From: a virus
Lineage: Duplodnaviria > Heunggongvirae > Uroviricota > Caudoviricetes
Virus record (IMG/VR): IMGVR_UViG_3300029605_000001
DNA: 64,000 nucleotides
Strand: one strand, 5' to 3'
The notes beneath the pieces were generated by a model, which did not search any database, was not told the origin of the DNA, and saw nothing but the letters and a program-made list of their open reading frames with translations. This document shows positions 3,302 to 45,205 of this stretch, in pieces; position 1 is the first letter of the stretch, and each line of letters opens with the position of its first letter. Position numbers and translations under genes: made by a program.

Positions 3302-4156
3302 TTATAATAAGTCTTTTAGTCCATCTGAATAATTTTTTCTTATGTAGTTTATGGCGCTATGCTGAATCTGTCTTACTCTTTCTCCTCCTATACCAAATCT
3401 ATTAGCAATTTCATCATTAGACATAGGGTCCATTCCTATTCCAAAAGACATTCTTAGGATATCTCTATCTCTGCATGATAATTTAGATAAAACTCTTTCT
3501 ATTTCGTTAGAAAGATCACTCTCATTAGTATTTATATCTGTAGGAGCAGAATTTTCATTTGGAATAATATCTATTAGACAATTACTATCTTCATCTTTTA
3601 TAGGATTATCAAGGGATACAGATCTGGATACAGAAGATAGAGCAGTATTAATCTTACTTTGGTCTAAATTAGTTTCATTTTCAAGTTCTTGTATAGACGG
3701 TTTTCTTCCATTTAGTTGCTCAAATTTCTCAGATACTTTATTAATTTTATTTATGTATACAACTTGACTCATAGGAATCCTAACAGTCCTACATTGATCT
3801 GATAAAGCTTTCATAATTGCTTGCCTTATCCACCATACTGCATATGAAATAAACTTGAATCCTTTATCAGGATCAAATAATTTAGCTGCTTGTATCATTC
3901 CTAAATTACCTTCCTGTATTAAGTCCACTAGTGGTAGACCTTTTCCTTGATATTGCTTTGCTACAGATATAACAAATCTTAAATTTGATTTGATTAATTT
4001 ATCCATAGCATCTGAATTACCTTCTTTTACTTTTCTAGTAAGCTCTACTTCTTCTTCCTGACTAAGAATAGGCTGTTTAGATACATCTTTGAAATATAAT
4101 CCCAAAGATGCATCTTGCCTGTCAGTAATAGATTGAGTTATTTTTAGACTTTTCAT
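3302..4156 (-). CDS. sigma-70 family RNA polymerase sigma factor (regions 1.2, 2, 3, 4)
   Basis: Region 2 DLIQEGNLGMIQAAKLFDPDKGFKFISYAVWWIRQAI. Region 4 MSNDEIANRFGIGGERVRQIQHSAINYIRK. Confidence 0.85.
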   Translation of the reverse strand: MKSLKITQSITDRQDASLGLYFKDVSKQPILSQEEEVELTRKVKEGNSDAMDKLIKSNLRFVISVAKQYQGKGLPLVDLIQEGNLGMIQAAKLFDPDKGFKFISYAVWWIRQAIMKALSDQCRTVRIPMSQVVYINKINKVSEKFEQLNGRKPSIQELENETNLDQSKINTALSSVSRSVSLDNPIKDEDSNCLIDIIPNENSAPTDINTNESDLSNEIERVLSKLSCRDRDILRMSFGIGMDPMSNDEIANRFGIGGERVRQIQHSAINYIRKNYSDGLKDLL

Positions 4157-5286
4157 TAGGACTCATCCTCAATGTTACTTTCTCCTTTATCAAGGAGTTC
4201 TTGTTCTTTATTAAGAAATCTAAAACATTTTAATTTAAAAGCTCTAGTAACTCCGTCATCAATTTTAATTACTAATCCCTCATGAGGAACCTTATTTATA
4301 CAATGAGGTGAATCCATTTCCATATAGAAACTAGGATCATTAGAAAGATTATCAATAAAGTTTTCATTCCAATGATTTGAAATATCAAGCTCAGGATATA
4401 GATCCTTAGCCAGACCACAGTAGCATTCTTCAACTGGAGTAAGTCCTACACTGGAACACCACTGTTGTACTTGATGTGGAGTATACTCATATACTTTACC
4501 ATCTACATTAGTATATGTGACTCTGTAAATTCTTACTTTGAAATGTTTTTCTGGAGTATACTTTTCTCCGTCCTTTGGAGGAGTACACCCATAATCATAC
4601 TTTTTTTGAATATATTTCCCATTAGGAAGATATCCAATAATCTCATAATAAGCAGTCTGCCCCTTTGCTAAGCAAGGTCTAACAATATTATCAGCTTCTG
4701 CCCATACATCAACACCATAGAAACCACTACCAACATTACGATTATAATACTTATTCTTTATAACTGTTCTAGAAGCGTAAATATAATCATACCTATTGAA
4801 TTCTTCTCCAGTAAGCCATTTAGCTATCTTTTGTTTCCAGTTCAAAGGCTGTCTACATAACACATATGCCGCATCGAATTCAATACCCTCTTTGACATTT
4901 TCTAATTCCTTATTAGTTACTGATATAATATAATTTTCTAAAATAGTCATCGGAAGAATAAATCCTTCAGATAATTCTCCTCTAAGTTTTATAGCCTTAA
5001 CCCTTCCATTATCATCAAACATTCCAGACTGTTCTGGATCCTTATTTAATTCTTTATGTCTATATAAATTAGCATAACTTAAGAAATCTCCATTTATGCA
5101 AGACAATGCTGGGAAATATACATATAGTCCAGGCTCAGAATCAATACCAGTAATAATATTAAATCCATCAATAGTACAGCACTTAAGTCTATTAACGTCA
5201 GGATCAGAATGTTTTCTGAATGTAGAAATATTTACAATTTTAGATAAATAATTCTCACTTGCTTTCTTACTTTTAATTAATTCCAT
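4156..5286 (-). CDS. ATP-dependent RNA/DNA ligase-family nucleotidyltransferase (RNA ligase-like)
   Basis: C-terminal HEGLVIKIDDG (motif IV EGhVhK) and KLKCFRF (motif V KxK). Motif I is not clearly identified. Confidence 0.45.
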   Translation of the reverse strand: MELIKSKKASENYLSKIVNISTFRKHSDPDVNRLKCCTIDGFNIITGIDSEPGLYVYFPALSCINGDFLSYANLYRHKELNKDPEQSGMFDDNGRVKAIKLRGELSEGFILPMTILENYIISVTNKELENVKEGIEFDAAYVLCRQPLNWKQKIAKWLTGEEFNRYDYIYASRTVIKNKYYNRNVGSGFYGVDVWAEADNIVRPCLAKGQTAYYEIIGYLPNGKYIQKKYDYGCTPPKDGEKYTPEKHFKVRIYRVTYTNVDGKVYEYTPHQVQQWCSSVGLTPVEECYCGLAKDLYPELDISNHWNENFIDNLSNDPSFYMEMDSPHCINKVPHEGLVIKIDDGVTRAFKLKCFRFLNKEQELLDKGESNIEDES

Positions 5287-10224: not shown

Positions 10225-10724
10225 GCTTGTAGAACTTTAGGAATAAAATTCCCATCTTCAATTACAAGGTAATTCTTATATCCAAGAGAATCACATAACC
10301 ATATATTTTGATTTCCTAATGTAGCTGCTTTCATATTAACTATTTTACTAGTTGTTGTATGCCCTACAACCTGATCATACCCTTTAATATTACAACTACA
10401 TAATGTACCAGGCCTAATCCAAGTTGGAGGTTGAGTTTCTGAATCTCCATAATAATCCAACGGACTATCAGGTGTAAATCCAAATTCTTCTCTTAGGCCA
10501 TAGTCATTAATGTTATGAACATCAGACTCCTTTAAGATTTTCTCCAGCCATACCTTAGATACTCCAGCGTGAGAAAATATAGTTTTTAATTCATCATCTA
10601 TATATACCCAATCGGTTAGTTTAGTAAATCTCATTAGAAACTCAGCACTACTCATTCCAAATGCAACCTCCCTATCATAACCACTACACTCTGCCCAATA
10701 ATATCCTAGATGCTGTGTATCCTT
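10221..10724 (-). CDS. Ser/Thr protein phosphatase (calcineurin-like metallophosphatase), exon 2
   Basis: IFSHAG, PPTWIRPG, GYDQVVGHTTT match the C-terminal half of lambda-PPase/PrpE-type phosphatases. The frame stays open upstream of the listed Met to a TAA at about 10725. Confidence 0.6.
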   Translation of the reverse strand, partial: KDTQHLGYYWAECSGYDREVAFGMSSAEFLMRFTKLTDWVYIDDELKTIFSHAGVSKVWLEKILKESDVHNINDYGLREEFGFTPDSPLDYYGDSETQPPTWIRPGTLCSCNIKGYDQVVGHTTTSKIVNMKAATLGNQNIWLCDSLGYKNYLVIEDGNFIPKVLQA

Positions 10725-11769
10725 TTATGTTTATATTAGTTCGTTAAGCTAATATCAATAGGGTAGTTCATACCCATAGCTCATACTTCCTTATTCGTAT
10801 GAGAACTGACTATCTCACACCCTCGACTTTACTCGTTAGGGGCCGCGCATTTCGAACCACTTGATTCTACTCCCATTTCAGGGATAGTCGATGAGCCTTC
10901 CTCTAATACAGAGGCTTGGTTGACGATTGGCATCTCAGCCGTCTCCTCAGTTAACACGGTTTCGACAGATGATTTCTCATCTGAAGCACAAAATATTTCT
11001 TCAAACTTTAATCTTTTTTCATTACACCAAATAGGAGATTTAGAATACATATACTCGTAAAGACTTCTAGCCTAACCTCTTCCAGAATATTCCATAGTAC
11101 ATACTTTGTTACAGGTAGGAGTATTTAGATTTTTGGCTTTAGAGTAATTTAGTTTAGTCTTTCTTTTTACTATTCCCTTGCTTACAAGAAACTCTTGAAG
11201 TGGTTCAATGAAAGAAATGCATCCAGTAAATGTAAATTTTACGTTATGGACTATTCTTTCCCTCATCTCTCCTGGCTTCTTTTCGTTCTTAACCCACATT
11301 TTCTTTCTTTTACCATTCCAAATACATCCGTCTCCATCAAAATATCCTAATATAAAGGATGACATAAGTTCGCCCGGTATAAACTATGGAAAATTAAGTA
11401 ATAAAGATTTGTTTCTTGGTACTCCTAGATTAACTAAATCCTAACATAATTTTTTGCTATTGATACTTAGTCTGTACACGCCAGGGCTATATGTTCTAAT
11501 AGGGTAATTAGAATCTAGTGCTTTGTTAATTTTCTCTAGTATATCAACTCTTTCTTCTATTTGGTCTAATTCTAGGCAATCCTATCTATTATACCCGTCT
11601 GCGTATATAAACCCCAATATATACGCCTATTCGTGAGTTTTTAACTCACTAAAGTAGTTTTCGTTAAAATCATATTTTCTATACATACAATTAAATAATT
11701 TTGTTTATAGGTAAATATAGTATGATTTCCTCAGATTACCAAATTAAAGTTTGTAATTTTATGATTGCC
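10725..11769 (-). mobile_element. group I-type intron in the phosphatase gene carrying a LAGLIDADG ORF
   Basis: N-terminal phosphatase motifs at 11770-11858 and C-terminal half at 10221-10724 are separated by about 1 kb. That segment holds a GC-rich core (about 10750-10960) and a LAGLIDADG ORF. Confidence 0.45.
11072..11365 (-). CDS. LAGLIDADG homing endonuclease (single-motif)
   Basis: MSSFILGYFDGDGCIW. An upstream in-frame TAG-containing extension exists, but its coding status is unclear. Confidence 0.6.
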   Translation of the reverse strand: MSSFILGYFDGDGCIWNGKRKKMWVKNEKKPGEMRERIVHNVKFTFTGCISFIEPLQEFLVSKGIVKRKTKLNYSKAKNLNTPTCNKVCTMEYSGRG

Positions 11770-12488: not shown

Positions 12489-14288
12489 TTAATCACACTT
12501 ACTATAGGAGCAATTATTACACTGTATACATCCTCCTGTATGAATAAGAGTTTTTTCATGACAGTTTGGACACTCTTCTAGATCTATTACTTCTCTAGTT
12601 GTTAACTCGGTATTAGAAGTTTTATCACTATCAATAATACTTAGTACCTTATTATGCATTTCCTTTAATGCTTTACCTACAGCTACAGGACAACAAGAAC
12701 CAGGAGAGGTATCCTTTTTAGTAGCAGTTCTAACTGCGTAAGAAGGACATACACCACAAGATTTTAGTTGATCAAGAATATCATCAATCTTAATACCTCC
12801 TCTAGCAGATAATGAGATTAATCTAGAAAGACCAATCATAAAATTCTGGCATCCTCCTAATGAACCTTTACTCAAGTAACACTCTCTGAGTTCTCCATTA
12901 GATGGTTCGAAATAAGCACAACAATGTAATGTACCACATCCAGTCATTAAAGTACTTTTGAGTCCTATCCAGTTATTTCCAGCTTTTATAATCTCTCCCC
13001 TACCTAAGGATTTTGGCTGATGTTTTTCTTCTATCTTATCTGCTGGTTTTTCTGTAGTAAGAATACCCTCTCTCATACACCCACTTCTATATATTGTAAT
13101 TCCTTTCAACCCATATTTCCAAGCTTTAACATATATATTATATACATCTTCAACAGTGGCAGAGTTAGGAAGATTTATAGTAGAACTAATAGAAGCGTCA
13201 GTATACTCCTGTAAAATACTTTGCACCTTAATCCTATCAACTGGATTAATATCTTTTGACTCAATAAAATAACTAGGTAATTTACTATCCTTACTAGGAT
13301 CAACTCTAGAATAATAATCATCTACTATTTTAAGATTAACTTCATAGAAGGTATCTTCACCGTTAAGGGTTTGAGTTTTTCTAGTATATTTAAGTGCAAA
13401 ATTTGGTTCAACTCCTGTACTTACTTGTAGCATAGTAGCTATACTACCAGTAGGAGCACAGGTTAATAATTGACTATTATATAATCCATACTGCTTTATC
13501 TCTTTTATTAGATTTCCATCACACACAGCTTTAATAAATGAAGAATTAGATACTAGCTCTTTATTACACATAGGATATGGTCCATATATCTTTGCCAAAT
13601 CTATAGATGCCTTTATGGCAGATACTGCAATACATTTATATACATCATTAAGTAATGCTAATGATTTTTCAGAACCATATGTTAATCCTAACTTAATTAG
13701 CATATCAGCCATACCCATTGTCCCAAGACCAATTTGTCTCCAAGTTCTAACAGAATCTCTTTGTTCTCTTAAAGGATGTAATTCAATACCCTCATTAAGT
13801 ACATCATTTAATCCCTTGACTACTATTATAACTGCATTAGATAAATCCTTGTAATCTACTGACGCTAATGGAGTAAACGCATCCTTAACAAATTCACTCA
13901 AATTTATACTGCCTAGTAAGCAACTACCTCCAGCAGGTAAGGGCTCTTCAGCACAAGGATTTACTCCAGCATAAGAGAAAAATTCATTATTATCTAGCAT
14001 ATTATACTGAGAGATTCTATCCCAATATAAAAGCCCGGGTTCAGCCCATTCCCAATTACGTTTAGCAAGTAATTTAAGTAGATATTTAGCTTTAAAAGTC
14101 CTAGAAATAGTTCCAGTCTTAGGGCTAGTATAAGTAGCTACCCAATCTTCATCATTGATGGCAGCTTTCATAAATTCATCGGTAACTCTAATACTTATAT
14201 TAGCCTTTTCACATACTCCTTGTTGAGTTTTTAAATTAATAAAATCCTCAATATCAGGATGAGAGCAGTTAATACTAATCATCAATGC
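12489..14288 (-). CDS. nrdJ: ribonucleotide reductase class II (adenosylcobalamin-dependent), exon 2
   Basis: Begins ALMISINCSHPDIEDFI, continuing the GRRG end of exon 1. C-terminal Cys-rich tail with CPNCHEKTLIHTGGCIQCNNC. Confidence 0.85.
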   Translation of the reverse strand, partial: ALMISINCSHPDIEDFINLKTQQGVCEKANISIRVTDEFMKAAINDEDWVATYTSPKTGTISRTFKAKYLLKLLAKRNWEWAEPGLLYWDRISQYNMLDNNEFFSYAGVNPCAEEPLPAGGSCLLGSINLSEFVKDAFTPLASVDYKDLSNAVIIVVKGLNDVLNEGIELHPLREQRDSVRTWRQIGLGTMGMADMLIKLGLTYGSEKSLALLNDVYKCIAVSAIKASIDLAKIYGPYPMCNKELVSNSSFIKAVCDGNLIKEIKQYGLYNSQLLTCAPTGSIATMLQVSTGVEPNFALKYTRKTQTLNGEDTFYEVNLKIVDDYYSRVDPSKDSKLPSYFIESKDINPVDRIKVQSILQEYTDASISSTINLPNSATVEDVYNIYVKAWKYGLKGITIYRSGCMREGILTTEKPADKIEEKHQPKSLGRGEIIKAGNNWIGLKSTLMTGCGTLHCCAYFEPSNGELRECYLSKGSLGGCQNFMIGLSRLISLSARGGIKIDDILDQLKSCGVCPSYAVRTATKKDTSPGSCCPVAVGKALKEMHNKVLSIIDSDKTSNTELTTREVIDLEECPNCHEKTLIHTGGCIQCNNCSYSKCD

Positions 14289-15115
14289 CATATCAATAAT
14301 TTGATATTAGACTATCTCTTAGTAGAAAACTATGCTTTTCTACCCTGTGCACTTCCATAGGAGAATTTCACTCCTTATGTACTCTACTCGGTTCTTCACT
14401 AGTAGCTGTACTAGTTACCCTTTCGATAGTCGTTACACTTTCATCTGTAAATTCTATTTTATAACCCTTAAATTTTCCTCTATTCGGAGAATACGGACTT
14501 GACTTAACTAACCAATGTTGAAAAGTAGTTGGGTTTTTATAGCCATAAAATCTAGAAGCCTCACTCATATTTGGAAATATAATTATATTTCCATCTGGGT
14601 CAGTTACTTTAATTCGTTTTATAGCAGCATAAGTACAATTATCATATCCATGTTGTGTATTATAACTAACTGTACACCATTCTAAATTTTCAACTGTGTT
14701 ATTTTTCTTATTTAAGTCTTTATGATTGACTACAGTACATCCTTCTACTTCAGGAATATATTTTAGAGCAACTAGTCTGTGTACTCTAAACGGATGTCTA
14801 TCCCCGTTTTCATTATAAATTAATGATACATCATAGTAACCATCCTTATCTTCTCTAAATTTTAAGTATCTACTTGTATAAGGACTATAAACTTTACCAT
14901 CTCTAGAGATGTCATAATGTTCCAAGACATATTTTTCTTTTTCAGTCATATTTGTAATATTTTATATTTAACATTACAAATTTAAACATTATGATTTAGA
15001 ATTACAAATGTTTAGCACGGTATTTTATTTCAAAAATAATTCACCGTTAGCAACCTAAAATGGTCACACCCTATATTTATAGGTTCACACAGTTACGAGG
15101 CACATTTTAAGGCTT
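14289..15115 (-). mobile_element. group I intron in the class II RNR gene carrying an HNH endonuclease
   Basis: Exon 1 ends ...SGRRG (ggt, ending in U). The intron ends ...gatatG just before gca ttg atg (ALM). The in-frame stop follows 2 codons after RRG. Confidence 0.7.
14368..14949 (-). CDS. HNH homing endonuclease (intron-encoded)
   Basis: HNH motif HRLVALKYIPEVEGCTVVNHKDLNKKNNTVENLEWCTVSYNTQHG. Confidence 0.75.
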   Translation of the reverse strand: MTEKEKYVLEHYDISRDGKVYSPYTSRYLKFREDKDGYYDVSLIYNENGDRHPFRVHRLVALKYIPEVEGCTVVNHKDLNKKNNTVENLEWCTVSYNTQHGYDNCTYAAIKRIKVTDPDGNIIIFPNMSEASRFYGYKNPTTFQHWLVKSSPYSPNRGKFKGYKIEFTDESVTTIERVTSTATSEEPSRVHKE

Positions 15116-15559
15116 ACCTCGGCGGCCACTCTGGCCAATTAATCCAGTAATGTAACTATAAAAGTCCATAAAACTTACAGCTCCTGAAGTACTTTTAGCC
15201 GCATTGTGAACAATTGCCCCCTTAGGTCTTAAGTTACTTATATCTATTCCACATCCTCCTCCATAGCTATATGTTCTAGCTAATTTACTTCCAGTTTCAA
15301 AAATTGACTCTATACTATCTTCAGGTGGGGAAATAACATAACAGTTACTATATGTAACTTTTCTATCTTTTAGCCCTCTACTTGCTAAAATTCTCCCCCC
15401 ATATAAAAATTTCTTATTTAAAATTAAGTTTTTAATCTCTGGAGTTTTATTACTTATTCTATCTACCCATTCATCAAAAGTCTCATTATTCTGTTGATAT
15501 TTTTTATGCCAAATATCAAGAGCTAACTGATTATTTTCAAGCCATTTTTCTACTGTCAT
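15107..15559 (-). CDS. nrdJ: ribonucleotide reductase class II, exon 1 (N-terminal 147 aa; exon ends near 15116)
   Basis: KFLYGGRILAS, SNCYVI, SYGGGCGIDISNLRPKGA, TSGAVSFMDF, GQSGRRG. Confidence 0.85.
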   Translation of the reverse strand: MTVEKWLENNQLALDIWHKKYQQNNETFDEWVDRISNKTPEIKNLILNKKFLYGGRILASRGLKDRKVTYSNCYVISPPEDSIESIFETGSKLARTYSYGGGCGIDISNLRPKGAIVHNAAKSTSGAVSFMDFYSYITGLIGQSGRRGKP

Positions 15560-25571: not shown

Positions 25572-26754
25572 TTTCGTATAACTACATAAATTAGCAAGTA
25601 GTAATCATCTACTCAATTTATGCCAACCGTGTTTCCACGGGAACTGACTAAGTATTCATAAATTCTTAAAATCCTTATATTTCATAAAAACAAACCCTTT
25701 AACACTATCAATCTTCCCATTACAGCAATGGGATATACTTTGTGTTGATACTCCTGTTGCCTTACTAGCAAGTATTGCTGTTCTGTAGATAGCTATTAAA
25801 TTGTTCTTTAAGTCAAACTGACAAACACTATTTGGGGCATAATTAACAACTGGAGTATTATCATTTTTATATCTCCAAATGTAACCCCCCGCTGTATTAT
25901 GATTTGGTCTATGAGCACAACAGTGTCCAATATTCGCTCTGTCTATACCTAGAACTCTAGCAGCTTCAGATATTGAAGGCCATTCCTTTATTAATTCTCC
26001 ATTTTTGGAGAACTGCTTAATATATTCACCTTGTAATTCGGTTATTGAATCTTTGACTTTCTTCTTAGTTTCTTTAGAGCGTTTTATTCCTTTTAATCCT
26101 TCTGAGATTTTTTTTCTGGTCACTTCGTCTCTAGGTACGCCTCTGATCTTGGAAGCTCTTAGCTCAATACTTTCTTTACTGAAGTGCTGATTACCGTCAC
26201 CTCCATCAGTTAGGTTAGTTAGATTGAATCCCCACACTTTCATCTGGGAAATCCAATACTGTTCAAACCATTTCCAGTCCTCATTATCATCAAATTGAAG
26301 TGAGTCTAACTCCTCTATAATAATAGAATATCCCTCATCTAATTCATGATTAATCCAATTATAGTTATGGTTTTTATAATTACCTAACTTTTTGGCTTTC
26401 CTTGCATCACATAAGTGACCTTGTAATCTCCTCTTTAGTGTTTGTTTTGTTTTTCCTATATACCTAATATTATTTAGGTCCCTAGTCGAGCTCAATGTGT
26501 AAATCTTAATTTCCATATCAGTAATATTTAATATTACAAATATAGATTAATTATTTTACACATCAAAGGATTTTTAAAAAATTTACATCCCCATTTCAAA
26601 AACAGGCGATTAACTCTGTTTCTTACGTAGCCGATCCGCTACTAGTCAATACACGCGCCCGGAATTACTTCCTGCTTGGCTCGGCATTAGCATACATTTA
26701 GTCTCACGACTCAAGCTCCAGCCTTCACCGAATTAGGGGTTATACAGGCAATTA
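25572..26754 (-). mobile_element. group I-type intron-like element carrying a GIY-YIG endonuclease ORF
   Basis: GC-rich structured segment 26600-26750 (much higher GC than surroundings). GNRA-capped hairpin CCGTG-GAAA-CACGG at 25615-25627. The GIY-YIG ORF is looped between them, as in T4 td/I-TevI. Confidence 0.45.
25656..26516 (-). CDS. GIY-YIG homing endonuclease (I-TevI-like) with NUMOD-type HTH repeats; no in-frame TAG
   Basis: IYTLSSTRDLNNIRYIGKT (GIY...YIG), RRLQGH, EQYWISQ, NLTDGGDG. Two HTH repeats ISEAARVLGIDRANIGHCC and ILASKATGVSTQSISHCC. Confidence 0.8.
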   Translation of the reverse strand: MEIKIYTLSSTRDLNNIRYIGKTKQTLKRRLQGHLCDARKAKKLGNYKNHNYNWINHELDEGYSIIIEELDSLQFDDNEDWKWFEQYWISQMKVWGFNLTNLTDGGDGNQHFSKESIELRASKIRGVPRDEVTRKKISEGLKGIKRSKETKKKVKDSITELQGEYIKQFSKNGELIKEWPSISEAARVLGIDRANIGHCCAHRPNHNTAGGYIWRYKNDNTPVVNYAPNSVCQFDLKNNLIAIYRTAILASKATGVSTQSISHCCNGKIDSVKGFVFMKYKDFKNL

Positions 26755-27231
26755 TTAATTACCTTGAGTTTTTATTTTATAATATGGATTAATGTTATCC
26801 CCTGTATTCTCACTATGAGTCAGTACACATACTACTAAATCATCTCTCATTCCCATTGCTGCTTTAAGAGCTTCATAAGCATGTTTAGCCATATCAGTAA
26901 ATTTTCCATACCCCTTTTCATCTACTCTAGCCATTGCTTCAAAAGCCTGAAGATACTGATAATCATCAATTATCAATGTCTTTATATAGGTTAGCTTCTT
27001 ATCAACAATAGCCATCATTTTCTTAATGTTATCTATATTAGAAGTAGTATAAAAATTACCAGTTATTCCACTTCCAGTTATTTCAACATCAGGATACTTC
27101 TTTCTAGCTCCTTTTATACCAGGTCTTTTTCCAGTAGTACTAATAATAAAAGTTTCACTAGGGTTTAAATTCCTAATACTTGTAGTTTTTCCACTTCCAC
27201 TCTCTCCAACAATTGCAATTAATTCTGCCAT
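26755..27231 (-). CDS. P-loop ATPase (AAA_24/Sak4-like RecA-fold), probably exon 1 of a split gene
   Basis: Walker A GESGSGKTT. Walker B TLIIDDYQ. Ends ...KIKTQGN immediately before the GC-rich intron-like segment. Confidence 0.5.
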   Translation of the reverse strand: MAELIAIVGESGSGKTTSIRNLNPSETFIISTTGKRPGIKGARKKYPDVEITGSGITGNFYTTSNIDNIKKMMAIVDKKLTYIKTLIIDDYQYLQAFEAMARVDEKGYGKFTDMAKHAYEALKAAMGMRDDLVVCVLTHSENTGDNINPYYKIKTQGN

Positions 27232-36854: not shown

Positions 36855-36959
36855 TTAAATAATCTTTTAATTAAGAACTTAATAAATTTTCATAAGTTCT
36901 TAAAATACTCTACTAACAATTTCATCTCTTTACATTATAGTTTTTACTTAAAAAATGTA

Positions 36960-42839: not shown

Positions 42840-43306
42840 ACTTTAATACCTAATTCGTTAACTAATCTCTGTGCTATAGCTGCGTCACTGTTATTTATAG
42901 CACTTATTATTAGCTTAGTATAAGAGCTAATAGAATACCCAGAGGATAATGCTTTAAGAGCATTTTGAACACAGTTAATAGTAAAACTGATACGCTCAGT
43001 AGTACTCATCATAGCACTACTAAGTACTCTATACTCCACCATCTAGGTTCTCTCCTAGATAAGACTTTCTCTTCACCTCCACCATTACGTGCTGAGGGGA
43101 TCCTATAAAGTCGTTACACCTTCCTCATTAGAGGCTTGGCTCGGGATTCCTGATGCTAGTTCCCCGAATTTAGGATCTTTCCAACTATTATTTCTAATAG
43201 CCCTGGCATTATAATACTTTCTATTCATAAAAGTATTAGCATCGTTATAAATATTATCTATAAACTGAATTATTCCCTCTTTATTATATATCTCAAAATC
43301 GTACAT
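42827..43306 (-). CDS. probable 3' exon region of the second amidoligase gene (ORFs 43103..43306 and 42827..43042)
   Basis: Two short ORFs follow the LAGLIDADG-containing insertion and are separated by a GC-rich patch (43040-43160). Assignment is by position and weak similarity to the amidoligase copy 1 C-terminus. Confidence 0.25.
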
Positions 43307-43381
43307 TTTTGTACCTTTGGGAGTGGTCTTTTCTCTTAAGAGACAATTAATTCCGTGAGCTTTAACAAAGTCATAAATAAT

Positions 43382-43957
43382 CTATATATGCTCTTTACAA
43401 GCACTAGTAATATTTACTTCTTTTATAGATTCCCAGCGGAAGTAGCCATCTCCTTCAAATACTCCTCGTATATAATCCCAAGTTATATTAAAGTTAGGAA
43501 CAAAGTTAAAGGTCTTATTATTTCCAAATCCTAGGATTAATAGAAAGTCTGTAATTTCTTTATTTCTAAATGAAACAGAAACCATTTCAAACTTACCATG
43601 ATGAATAGTATGTTTAATAACTAATTTCTTGGAAACAAAATCTCTAAATTTTTCTATTACATCAATATCTTTTATAGATAGAGATAAAGTAACTCTAGTT
43701 TCTTTATGAGATATGCATCCATCGGTCGCTAACCATCCTAACCAGTATAATACATCAGGATTTGAAAGATCAGCAAAAGGATTATTACACACTTTCTTTC
43801 TTCTAAAATCTGGATATTCTATACCGACTTCAGAACACATTCTTTTAAAAGTTCTGTAATCAGTTCTTAGCTCTTGTTTTACAAAACGAGCTTTTGGAAC
43901 CTAATTTTTAAGATTCTCTTTAACTAATTCGATTTCTTCTTCAGTAAAATGTCTCAT
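43382..43957 (-). CDS. LAGLIDADG homing endonuclease (double-motif) with N-terminal HTH; one in-frame TAG
   Basis: ATG 43955-43957: MRHFTEEEIELVKENLKN-TAG-VPKARFVKQELRTDYRTFKR, in frame with ORF 43382..43840. Motifs LGWLATDGCIS and IRGVFEGDGYF. TAG complement at plus 43901-43903. Confidence 0.6.
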
Positions 43958-44058
43958 ATTATTAATATTTATACTATTCCCTTTGTTGGGAGTAGATACA
44001 ATAATATAAAATATTTTTAAATAAACCAAAGAATTTAGATAATATTTATAGAGTTTTA

Positions 44059-44360
44059 TTATAGTTTACCATAAGGAGTAAGTCTAAAGCACCCAGCCTT
44101 TCCATATAACGATCTTCTGTTTTTATCATTATCAAGTAAAACAGATGGTACTCCAAGGAAAGCATCTAGATATTTCACTATAAGTAGAGAAGTATCTATA
44201 TTATTGTTATCATATCCCAAATGAATATGAAATCCACAACTCCTTAAGTTAGTACTATTACCCTTAGGTTTAGGATTTGGTTCTTCAGTGTAAACATTAT
44301 AGTCTACATCACACAATATGTTATCATGAAGCTTTTTATCTTCATTTCTATATCTATGCT
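44059..44360 (-). CDS. amidoligase family, copy 2, internal exon
   Basis: SCGFHIHLGYDN parallels ECSLHIHIGGFP of copy 1. The frame is bounded by TAA upstream and contains one TAG. Confidence 0.35.
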
Positions 44361-44577
44361 AGATTTTGATATAGTTCGGCGTACATTTTCTTCCTTATAA
44401 TAAGGAAGAGGACACTCTTGGAGAGATTATATTTATTCACTCTCTACGCTCTACAATACCCAGCAGCCTTTCGCAATCTTCTGGGTTATCACGGTATTTA
44501 AACAATAAATAACTTAACATCTTACTTTGTTTCCTCTCTAAAAAGAAATGTTTATTAAAATATAACTTGTTATACAA

Positions 44578-45205
44578 CTAATCTATAAACTTTTTACGAT
44601 TATATCCTGAACTAAATCTTAGAGTATAAAGAATCATCTTACTCTTTTGTACTCCTTCTACTCTTTTCTCTACACCAAATTCTTGCTCAAACAATTTTCC
44701 TAATTTTGTCATAAACTCTTTAGATGTCCCATATAAAGCAAACGTCATTTGATGAGTTTTTTCAGAATAGGAAATTTGTCCGTCTCCATCAAAAAATCCT
44801 CTAATGAAATCCCACACAAATTCTTTAGGAACCTTGTCAAAAGGAAATTGGAAAGAAGTATCACAAGTCTTCTTTGGAGTAATATTATAGAGTTCTAAGT
44901 CTTTGTTCATTATACTAGATGTCCATATTAAATTGTAAGATCCTTTATGATTTGTGCCATTCTTGTCAGTAAATGGAGCTTTATATACAGGCTCCTTTTC
45001 TGGAACAATAAAATCTCTAAACCAATTAATAACACTAATATCACTTTCTTGCAAATGAACAGAAAATCTATATGATTCAGTACATCTAGCCCCTAATCCA
45101 TAGGTTCCATCAGCTAAGAAGAAACCTAATAGATAAGCCTTCTATTCAGAGTCAATTACTCTGAAAAAATCGTCGTTAACATTATATTTTCTTTTCATAA
45201 TTACT
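44578..45205 (-). CDS. LAGLIDADG homing endonuclease (double-motif); one in-frame TAG
   Basis: ATG about 45203-45205: MKRKYNVNDDFFRVIDSE-TAG-KAYLLGFFLADGTYGL..., in frame with ORF 44578..45054 (IRGFFDGDGQIS). TAG complement at plus 45143-45145. Confidence 0.6.

Follow-up and report, generated by a model that had tools for sequence, protein, structure and literature searches.

A probable mobile group I intron with an HNH endonuclease gene in the class II ribonucleotide reductase gene of a metagenome phage

Why does a ribonucleotide reductase gene of a large, low-GC metagenome phage appear as three separate reading frames? The locus lies on the minus strand between positions 15559 and 12489 of a 64,000-nucleotide (nt) stretch of the viral record IMGVR_UViG_3300029605_000001, hereafter the window, and gene callers divide it into open reading frames (ORFs) of 150, 193 and 600 amino acids (aa). 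We propose that these three ORFs represent one 747-aa class II ribonucleotide reductase (RNR), NrdJ, and an intron-encoded endonuclease, and that the interruption of nrdJ is very probably due to a mobile group I intron of the IA2 type known from phages. A first-pass annotation of the window had already read the locus as a split nrdJ gene; what it observed is confirmed here, and the interpretation that it gave is supported.

Do the two outer frames belong to one and the same gene? The ORF at 15559..15107 (minus) encodes the N-terminal 148 residues of the RNR barrel (Pfam Ribonuc_red_lgC profile positions 1-76) and, after the GQSGRRG with which the first-pass annotation had ended exon 1, reads KP*, i.e. 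two extra codons and a stop; the U that had been named as the last nucleotide of this exon corresponds to the T at 15116. The ORF at 14291-12489 (minus) carries the remainder of the barrel (profile positions 79-523), including the NPCAEE active site, and the C-terminal TSCPD/Cys-rich domain. When 15116 is joined to 14288 a 747-aa protein results, and since exon 1 is 444 nt long the junction falls between Gly148 and Ala149. The joined exons score 452.2 bits on the NCBIfam model TIGR02504 (NrdJ_Z; cut-off 399.95) in one stretch, residues 14-554, which spans the junction, and the alignment of the product with the NrdJ of Thermotoga maritima (PDB 1XJE) is gap-free through RRGALM. Exon 2 indeed begins GCA TTG ATG (ALM) at 14288 and rebuilds the RRGA(L/M)M segment that had been predicted for it, without gaps relative to the NrdJ homologues.

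The active-site motifs YSNC (exon 1), NPCAEE and GGSC (both exon 2) of the spliced NrdJ align with LSAC, NPCGEI and YEAC of T. maritima, the Cys of YSNCYVI in exon 1 aligns with T. maritima Cys134, and the catalytic Cys, Asn and Glu are conserved relative to 1XJE. In the T. maritima structure, these residues are an active-site Cys pair, a thiyl-radical Cys, an Asn and a Glu. Catalytic residues are thus found on both sides of the interruption. The score on the NrdJ model and the alignment of the catalytic residues support the assignment of the interrupted gene to class II RNR, as the first-pass annotation had it, at the level of sequence comparison.

Intron-less alleles of this gene exist. The nearest nrdJ gene among GenBank phages, that of Bacteroides phage BS-TP1 (59% identity overall), is uninterrupted and reads RRG|ATM at the site, and the nrdJ gene of the C. 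difficile phage LIBA6276 (Clostridioides phage; 49% identity) is uninterrupted as well and reads RRA|ALM. Both align codon for codon and gap-free at the insertion site, and about 39 further IMG/VR nrdJ genes are uninterrupted there too. The interrupted arrangement of 3,071 nt was found identically in three independent metagenome assemblies and is therefore no artefact; since all three copies are identical to the window, they provide no polymorphism data on the helices. A megablast search of the locus against GenBank phages gave no match. The same sequence is also present on metagenome contigs of 75-163 kb, one of them labelled XIEH16-1_SAMEA3449197, and 19 tRNA matches, all on the minus strand between window positions 36958 and 61877, are consistent with a large, low-GC phage genome.

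Where exactly does the insert begin and end? The tail of exon 1 pairs over 6 bp with the intron sequence GCCUCG (15101-15096), with its terminal U opposite a G; this P1 helix also appears in the unconstrained minimum free energy (MFE) fold. Directly 5' of the P1 part of the guide, AAUGU (15106-15102) pairs over 5 bp with GCAUU of exon 2 (14288-14284), forming P10. Because the strands of P1 and P10 adjoin, one contiguous guide sequence aligns both exons, and the combination of a P1 that ends in U.G with an adjoining P10 fixes the junction at RRG|ALM, the very nucleotide at which the first-pass annotation had placed it. By a rough estimate, the chance of finding a 6-bp P1 in the first 30 nt together with an adjoining 5-bp P10 is well below 1 in 1,000. 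The last nucleotide of the intron is a G (omega-G) at 14289, as had been read from ..GATATG|GCA, and U15116/G14289 is the only splice-site pair that is both chemically canonical and in frame; it restores RRGALM. The predicted ligated junction would read ...GGCCGCCGAGGU|GCAUUGAUG..., also written as ...GGCCGCCGAGGU|GCAUUGAUGAUU.... A UAA codon just inside the intron halts the translation of exon 1 before the guide sequence is reached.

Does the insert belong to a known type of ribozyme? In a distant blastn search, intron positions ~650-770 resembled a stretch that bears no annotation and separates the two halves of the DNA-polymerase gene in Bacillus Herelleviridae phages, directly after a gene annotated as an HNH homing endonuclease, as well as DNA within the split nrdD gene of Fusobacterium phage phiKSUM. 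Motif scans of IMG/VR with an R-element motif and with a 5' motif gave at least 120 loci each, which yielded a non-redundant set of 117 family members, including 51 compact ones that have no ORF. RNAalifold was applied to an alignment of 30 compact relatives from which the window sequence was left out, and it returned a P3 enclosing two hairpins, followed by P4, P6, P7.1, P7.2 and P8, with compensatory changes in 37 of the 48 pairs. When the P7 pseudoknot is included (53 pairs), 96.3% of the cells are paired, versus 37-45% with the partners slid by 1-3 columns; both partners change in 39 of these pairs, covariation scores 0.69 versus ~0.1, and none of 500 shuffles reaches the observed values. 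At each of four positions of P3, four pair types occur among family members, and P7 changes between GAUCA/UGAUC, GAUUA/UAAUC and GACCA/UGGUC.

Two covariance half-models, split at the P6 loop in which the ORF resides and built from 30 relatives, again with the window sequence excluded, both find the intron. The 5' half-model matches 15100-15011 (minus) with 67.4 bits (E=1.4e-13) and the 3' half-model matches 14445-14306 (minus) with 75.2 bits (E=1.7e-14), each being the best match on either strand of the 64-kb window. The DNA-polymerase introns of Bacillus phages, which lay outside the model building, score 65-84 bits on the same half-models, and from these equal scores the nrdJ intron is as good a family member as they are. 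The family is also formally tied to the group I introns by four relatives that pass the Rfam group I model RF00028: its gathering score is reached by 4 of 14 ORF-less relatives, at the coordinates of the family intron (L193, 64.1 bits; L155, 57.0 bits; L219, 53.1 bits; L136, 51.9 bits). Matches of the relatives-only models to both ribozyme halves, and a fold of the ORF-excised intron that reproduces the family consensus, thus support the identification of the intervening sequence as a putative group I intron of a covarying ribozyme family, in line with the first-pass annotation.

For this fold, the 540-nt P6 loop was replaced by GAAA and the MFE structure was computed without constraints. The ORF-excised intron reaches -86.9 kcal/mol (z=-5.4; none of 100 shuffles is as stable), and its MFE structure contains P1, P3, both hairpins between P3 and P4, P4/P5, P6, P7.1/P7.1a, P7.2, P8 and P9 (Table 1). 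The P1-P9 fold by which the first-pass annotation wished its reading to be judged is present in its core helices, but it is not a plain P1-P9 fold, as P2 is absent and P7.1/P7.1a/P7.2 and the two P3-P4 hairpins are extra. Subgroup IA2 is recognized by P7.1 and P7.2 (or P7.1a) between P7 and the 3' strand of P3, linked by G-U-A (PMC3428280). The nrdJ intron has P7.1 and P7.2 with the G-U-A linker, and both helices covary in the family. In the standard IA2 diagram, P3 is joined to P4 by a short single-stranded J3/4, and extra hairpins between P3 and P4 are not known to be part of it. Here, two covarying hairpins occupy this place instead. They are common to at least 120 viral loci and to the subfamily as a whole, the DNA-polymerase introns of Bacillus phages included, and no earlier naming of them, as P3.1/P3.2, turned up in a literature search. 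Since they are not known from the IA2 diagram and since no prior name was found, we call the intron 'IA2-like'.

Table 1. Features of the interrupted nrdJ locus, in the direction of transcription (window coordinates)
Feature	Positions	Strand	Description and evidence
nrdJ exon 1	15559-15116	minus	444 nt, 148 codons; ends ...GQSGRRG; last nucleotide U (T in DNA) at 15116
P1 5' strand CGAGGU (exon-1 tail)	15121-15116	minus	duplex -9.3 kcal/mol; MFE fold
Putative group I intron, IA2-like	15115-14289	minus	827 nt; ribozyme ~287 nt plus 540-nt ORF-holding P6 loop
In-frame UAA stop	15109-15107	minus	intron positions 7-9
Internal guide sequence AAUGU/GCCUCG	15106-15096	minus	pairing with both exon ends
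P3 5' strand CUGUGUG	15092-15086	minus	pairs with 14351-14345 (UGCACAG); MFE
Two family-specific hairpins between P3 and P4	15083-15053	minus	CCUAU/AUAGG (15083-15070) and ACC/GGU (15064-15053), linked by conserved GGUGU; family alignment, RNAalifold, 5' model alignment, MFE
P4 (ACGGUG with UACCGU) enclosing P5	15047-15017	minus	holds P/Q-like conserved elements GCUAACGG and CCGUGCUAA; family models, MFE
P6 5' strand AUUUGUAAUUCUA	15009-14997	minus	MFE; P6 covaries in relatives
Intron ORF, putative HNH endonuclease (I-HmuI-like)	14949-14368	minus	193 aa; HNH_3, 1U3E, PHROG 59
P6 3' strand UAGAAUUUACAGAU	14456-14443	minus	MFE; within HNH coding sequence
P7 5' strand GACUA (R element UAACGACUAUCG)	14431-14427	minus	pairs with 14314-14310
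P7.1 region with inner hairpin P7.1a	14426-14390	minus	P7.1a ACUAGUA/UACUAGU (14415-14398); 3' model, MFE
Conserved linker GAGUAGAGUAC	14389-14379	minus	contains G-U-A; between P7.1 and P7.2
P7.2 hairpin, conserved loop GUGAAAUUC	14378-14357	minus	family alignment, 3' model
P3 3' strand UGCACAG	14351-14345	minus	preceded by conserved GGAAG; family alignment, MFE
P8 hairpin GUAGAAAA/UUUUCUAC	14343-14322	minus	Rfam partial match, 3' model, MFE
J8/7 and P7 3' strand (S element UAAGAGAUAGUC)	14321-14310	minus	UAGUC = 14314-14310; Rfam partial match, 3' model
P9 hairpin AUAUCAA/UUGAUAU	14307-14289	minus	omega-G 14289 directly after; Rfam partial match, MFE
nrdJ exon 2	14288-12489	minus	begins GCA UUG AUG = ALM; stop codon at 12489

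What does the reading frame in the P6 loop encode? The HNH ORF that had been annotated at 14368..14949 indeed lies within the intron and is full length, with no sign of decay. Its product scores 38.5 bits on Pfam HNH_3 (cut-off 24.8), its residues 10-111 match I-HmuI (PDB 1U3E; E=1.2e-15), and PHROG 59 (HNH endonuclease) matches residues 1-176 (E=8e-34); homologous ORFs are present in many introns of the same family. His76, Asn88 and Asn97 align with His75, Asn87 and Asn96 of I-HmuI, the catalytic His and the Asn residues of the HNH (beta-beta-alpha-metal) motif. From its start in the P6 loop the ORF extends into the ribozyme core: its final 89 nt (14456-14368) double as the 3' strand of P6, J6/7, P7, P7.1 and half of P7.2, and its UGA stop is situated within the conserved P7.2 loop GUGAAAUUC. 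A comparable overlap of ORF and ribozyme core is found in the intron of cyanophage Pf-WMP3 and in the nrdF intron of Bacillus thuringiensis (PMC3428280, PMC2248736, PMC3984707). Enzymes of the I-HmuI type nick one strand near the insertion site in the cognate gene (PMC3428280), and by analogy a single-strand nick near the insertion site would be expected of the HNH protein.

The 9-mer AUUUGUAAU occurs twice on the minus strand, at the start of the P6 5' strand (15009-15001) and at 14981-14973. Directly before the HNH start codon lies AUUACAAAU (14958-14950), to which each of the two copies is perfectly complementary. Such a pairing could link the translation of the ORF to the folding of P6. 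Since the hairpin before the HNH start codon is weak compared with shuffles (z=-1.8), we claim no regulatory role for it.

How might such an intron act? The pre-mRNA would fold into the ribozyme, whose guide AAUGU|GCCUCG would pair both with the last nucleotides of exon 1 (CGAGGU, which places the U.G where cleavage occurs) and with the first nucleotides of exon 2 (GCAUU). Held in P7, an external guanosine would then attack after U15116, and the freed 3'-OH of exon 1 would attack after omega-G14289, so that the exons are ligated to ...CGAGGU|GCAUUG... and the RRGALM loop and the 747-aa NrdJ are restored. The HNH protein, in turn, would be expected to cut intron-less nrdJ alleles near the conserved site, and repair of the cut would copy the intron in (homing). 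RNA splicing, endonuclease activity and homing are what we infer for this locus; P2-less IA2 phage introns with an HNH ORF that extends from P6a through P7.2 have been described and shown to splice (PMC3428280), and among phage genes it is those for RNR that introns interrupt most often (PMC3653736).

Several observations weigh against a mobile group I intron at this site. A search for an intron-less allele of the same phage with the exact 26-mer of the ligated junction, GGCCGCCGAGGTGCATTGATGATTAG, gave no match in viral or metagenome contigs. The metal ligand Asp74 of I-HmuI is replaced by Asn75 in the HNH ORF; Asn-His is also what the ORFs of the intron family usually have there. The covariation of P3 and P7 is partly circular, since complementarity of these two helices was a selection criterion for the relatives; the two hairpins, P4, P6, P7.1, P7.2 and P8 were not selection criteria when the relatives were gathered. 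Finally, Rfam gave no group I match at the gathering level in the whole 64-kb window, and even with relaxed filters the intron scores just 15.4 bits (E=0.38) on RF00028, over P8, J8/7, the 3' strand of P7 and P9 only.

The group I covariance search that the first-pass annotation had named as a check has two outcomes: the generic RF00028 model fails to detect the intron, but the family-specific models detect both of its halves. The RF00028 gathering cut-off of 50 bits is a detection threshold and not a defining property, and we ascribe the shortfall to the extra hairpins specific to the family and to the P6 loop, whose 540 nt include most of the ORF. As the family-specific models succeed, we do not take the failure of Rfam as evidence of absence. 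With 4 of 14 ORF-less relatives above the cut-off, Rfam detects only about a third of the subfamily, and RF00028 also missed both introns of phiKSUM. The nrdJ intron and most of its relatives are invisible to the standard Rfam group I model, standard annotation will under-call them, and many introns of this type probably await annotation in phage genomes and metagenomes. In phiKSUM (L001, OR492276.1), nrdD is annotated as three coding sequences, and the gaps at ~3385-3708 and ~3985-4290 hold two unannotated ORF-less introns, of which the first belongs to the family of the nrdJ intron and the second has the same 3' core but a divergent 5' half.

Could the intron be a relic that no longer splices, with nrdJ now a pseudogene? 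Such a loss would fit the low generic Rfam score and the minimal 3' end, which has a single P9 hairpin and neither P9.1 nor P9.2, and the other probable intron of the window (10722-11760) carries a decayed endonuclease ORF. Decay is not seen in nrdJ, however: the two exons are intact through all 747 codons and keep every catalytic residue, all core helices are intact, the sequences of R, S, J8/7 and the P7.2 loop match the family consensus, the HNH ORF is full length and the intron scores as high on the family models as the DNA-polymerase introns of Bacillus phages do. Given the intact exons, core helices and ORF and the conserved junction sequences, we consider a dead intron unlikely and would grant it a slim chance.

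Slimmer still, in our estimate, is the chance that an HNH gene has split nrdJ into halves that are translated apart and assemble without RNA splicing, for which nrdA-a/nrdA-b with mobE in Aeromonas phage Aeh1 provides a documented precedent (PMC3653736, PMC3045599). The frame of exon 1 runs into a stop within 9 nt of the insert, the intron ends in an AUG that is in frame with exon 2 and gives the 600-aa ORF a start of its own, and gene callers annotated three separate genes on three assemblies, all of which is what a gene in pieces would look like. What it leaves without a role is a complete ribozyme core that flanks the ORF and matches a covarying family, and the precise pairing of P1 and P10 with both exon ends; in addition, no Shine-Dalgarno-like sequence was seen, by eye, upstream of the AUG at 14291. 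Phage group I introns typically have such an in-frame stop close to their 5' end, and it is no evidence against splicing. Inteins are common in RNR genes including nrdJ (PMC3653736), but an intein or another protein-level insertion is excluded here by the reading frames, since the insert is out of frame and exon 1 meets a stop after two codons; the ORF moreover begins with a start codon of its own, and the domain that it matches is HNH_3 and not Hint.

If nrdJ carries a mobile group I intron, is its insertion site a recurrent target? A search of ~240 family loci gave no other case of the nrdJ intron at this position. Interruptions of related nrdJ genes recur in at least three places, at residues ~73, ~148 and ~261. 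The interruption at residue ~73 is found in loci L256 and L270, and that at residue ~261, NPC|AEE beside the NPC active site, in about 30. Two IMG/VR loci (L321 and L322, ~1619-2592) carry a LAGLIDADG group I intron in an nrdJ gene whose exon 1 is 68-70% identical in protein, inserted at RR|GALM and hence one codon (3 nt) upstream of the RRG|ALM site. This intron is of an unrelated lineage: its R and S elements, GUAGAGACUAC and AAGAAAUAGUCC, differ, it gives a weak 3'-core match and no 5' match on the family models, and its endonuclease belongs to a family other than HNH.

On an IMG/VR contig (L074, ~1169-2850), a class I RNR large-subunit gene is interrupted by a group I intron that follows ...ANQLG in the homologous loop and lies six codons upstream of the counterpart of the nrdJ insertion site, and the gene also holds a second, td-like intron beside the SNLC active site; the related locus L025 (minus strand) is without the first intron. 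Homing endonucleases prefer conserved coding sequence (PMC3984707), and neighbouring insertions in the loop of nrdJ and of a class I RNR gene suggest a conserved loop that is a repeated target, which fits this preference (PMC3984707). The conserved RRGALM loop thus appears to be targeted by two different introns. We offer it as a tentative and rather doubtful suggestion that the IA2 variant with hairpins between P3 and P4 (at least 120 IMG/VR loci) is formally undescribed and that RRGALM is a convergent target of two unrelated intron/endonuclease pairs.

At least one further intron of this type seems to be present in the 64-kb window itself. A second probable group I intron, at 10722-11760 (minus), splits a metallophosphatase-like gene at GNH|D (exon 1, 11856-11761; exon 2 from 10721), with T as the last exon base and G as the last intron base. 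Its 3' core (10903-10804) scores 37.3 bits on the family model (E=4e-6) and weakly on RF00028 (23.6 bits, E=0.002). It contains a decayed LAGLIDADG ORF in pieces of 97 aa and 73 aa (11365-11072 and 11050-10829), at the position of which a metagenome copy (L245) has an intact 285-aa ORF. A third, weaker match to the 3'-core model lies at 43059-43126 (minus; 27.9 bits, E=5e-4), where Rfam reports nothing. It adjoins a region, 43380-45060, with two LAGLIDADG ORFs (43840-43382 and 45054-44578; Pfam LAGLIDADG_3, ~1e-8) and possibly more introns, and beside it is a fragment of a phiEco32-like COOH-NH2 ligase gene (44316-44059). A marginal match to the 5' half-model at 26675-26776 (minus; 13.5 bits, E=0.5) may be due to chance.

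How does the nrdJ intron compare with known systems? [quoted passage not shown] They belong to the same RNA family, with 65-83 bits on the 3' model and 69-84 bits on the 5' model versus 75 and 67 bits for the nrdJ intron, and share its organization: no P2, a P3 followed by two hairpins and P4, an HNH ORF in the P6 loop, and P7.1/P7.2. The endonuclease of the nrdJ intron is homologous to their I-HmuI, and is at most ~42% identical to the nearest intron ORFs sampled. The host gene differs, being nrdJ here and family A DNA polymerase in the Bacillus phages, and so do two details of the architecture: the ORF of the nrdJ intron runs 89 nt into the ribozyme core, whereas that of DIGNKC ends before the 3' strand of P6, and the 3' end is shorter than in the Bacillus phage introns, with a single P9 hairpin followed by omega-G. 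The 3' core of the nrdJ intron also reads like that of T4 td (UAACGACUAUC...GAGUAG...AGAUAUAGUC).

Another parallel is with cyanophage Pf-WMP3, whose DNA-polymerase intron (IA2) encodes the nicking HNH enzyme I-PfoP3I and for which splicing and nicking were shown experimentally (PMC3428280). By its published description, this intron likewise has P7.1/P7.2 with G-U-A, no P2 and a short P10, and its HNH ORF, which starts in P6a and spans P6, P7, P7.1 and P7.2, overlaps the ribozyme as the ORF of the nrdJ intron does (PMC3428280). The two differ in host gene and phage, and for the nrdJ intron splicing and nicking are predicted.

Introns in RNR genes of class I and class III are well known, namely in T4 nrdB (I-TevIII) and nrdD (I-TevII), Twort nrdE (I-TwoI), bnrdE/bnrdF of SPbeta and nrdE/nrdF of the Bacillus cereus group. 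Like the nrdJ intron, they combine a homing-endonuclease gene with insertion into a conserved functional stretch of the RNR (PMC3653736, PMC2248736, PMC3984707); the nrdJ intron differs from them in its class II host gene. A survey of phage RNR genes from 2013 lists only two split nrdJ genes, and the one that it describes, that of Thermus phage phiYS40, is no intron case (PMC3653736).

In summary, the biology of the nrdJ intron follows the textbook, in that a conserved gene of nucleotide metabolism is host to a selfish intron and its homing endonuclease, and our understanding of such elements is unchanged by it. We regard the locus as mildly notable for its class II host gene, for a widespread and poorly detected variant with hairpins between P3 and P4, and for the unrelated neighbouring insertion in homologous genes. 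Set beside the introns of phage DNA-polymerase genes and of class I and class III RNR genes, the nrdJ intron adds class II RNR to the well-supported targets of phage introns.

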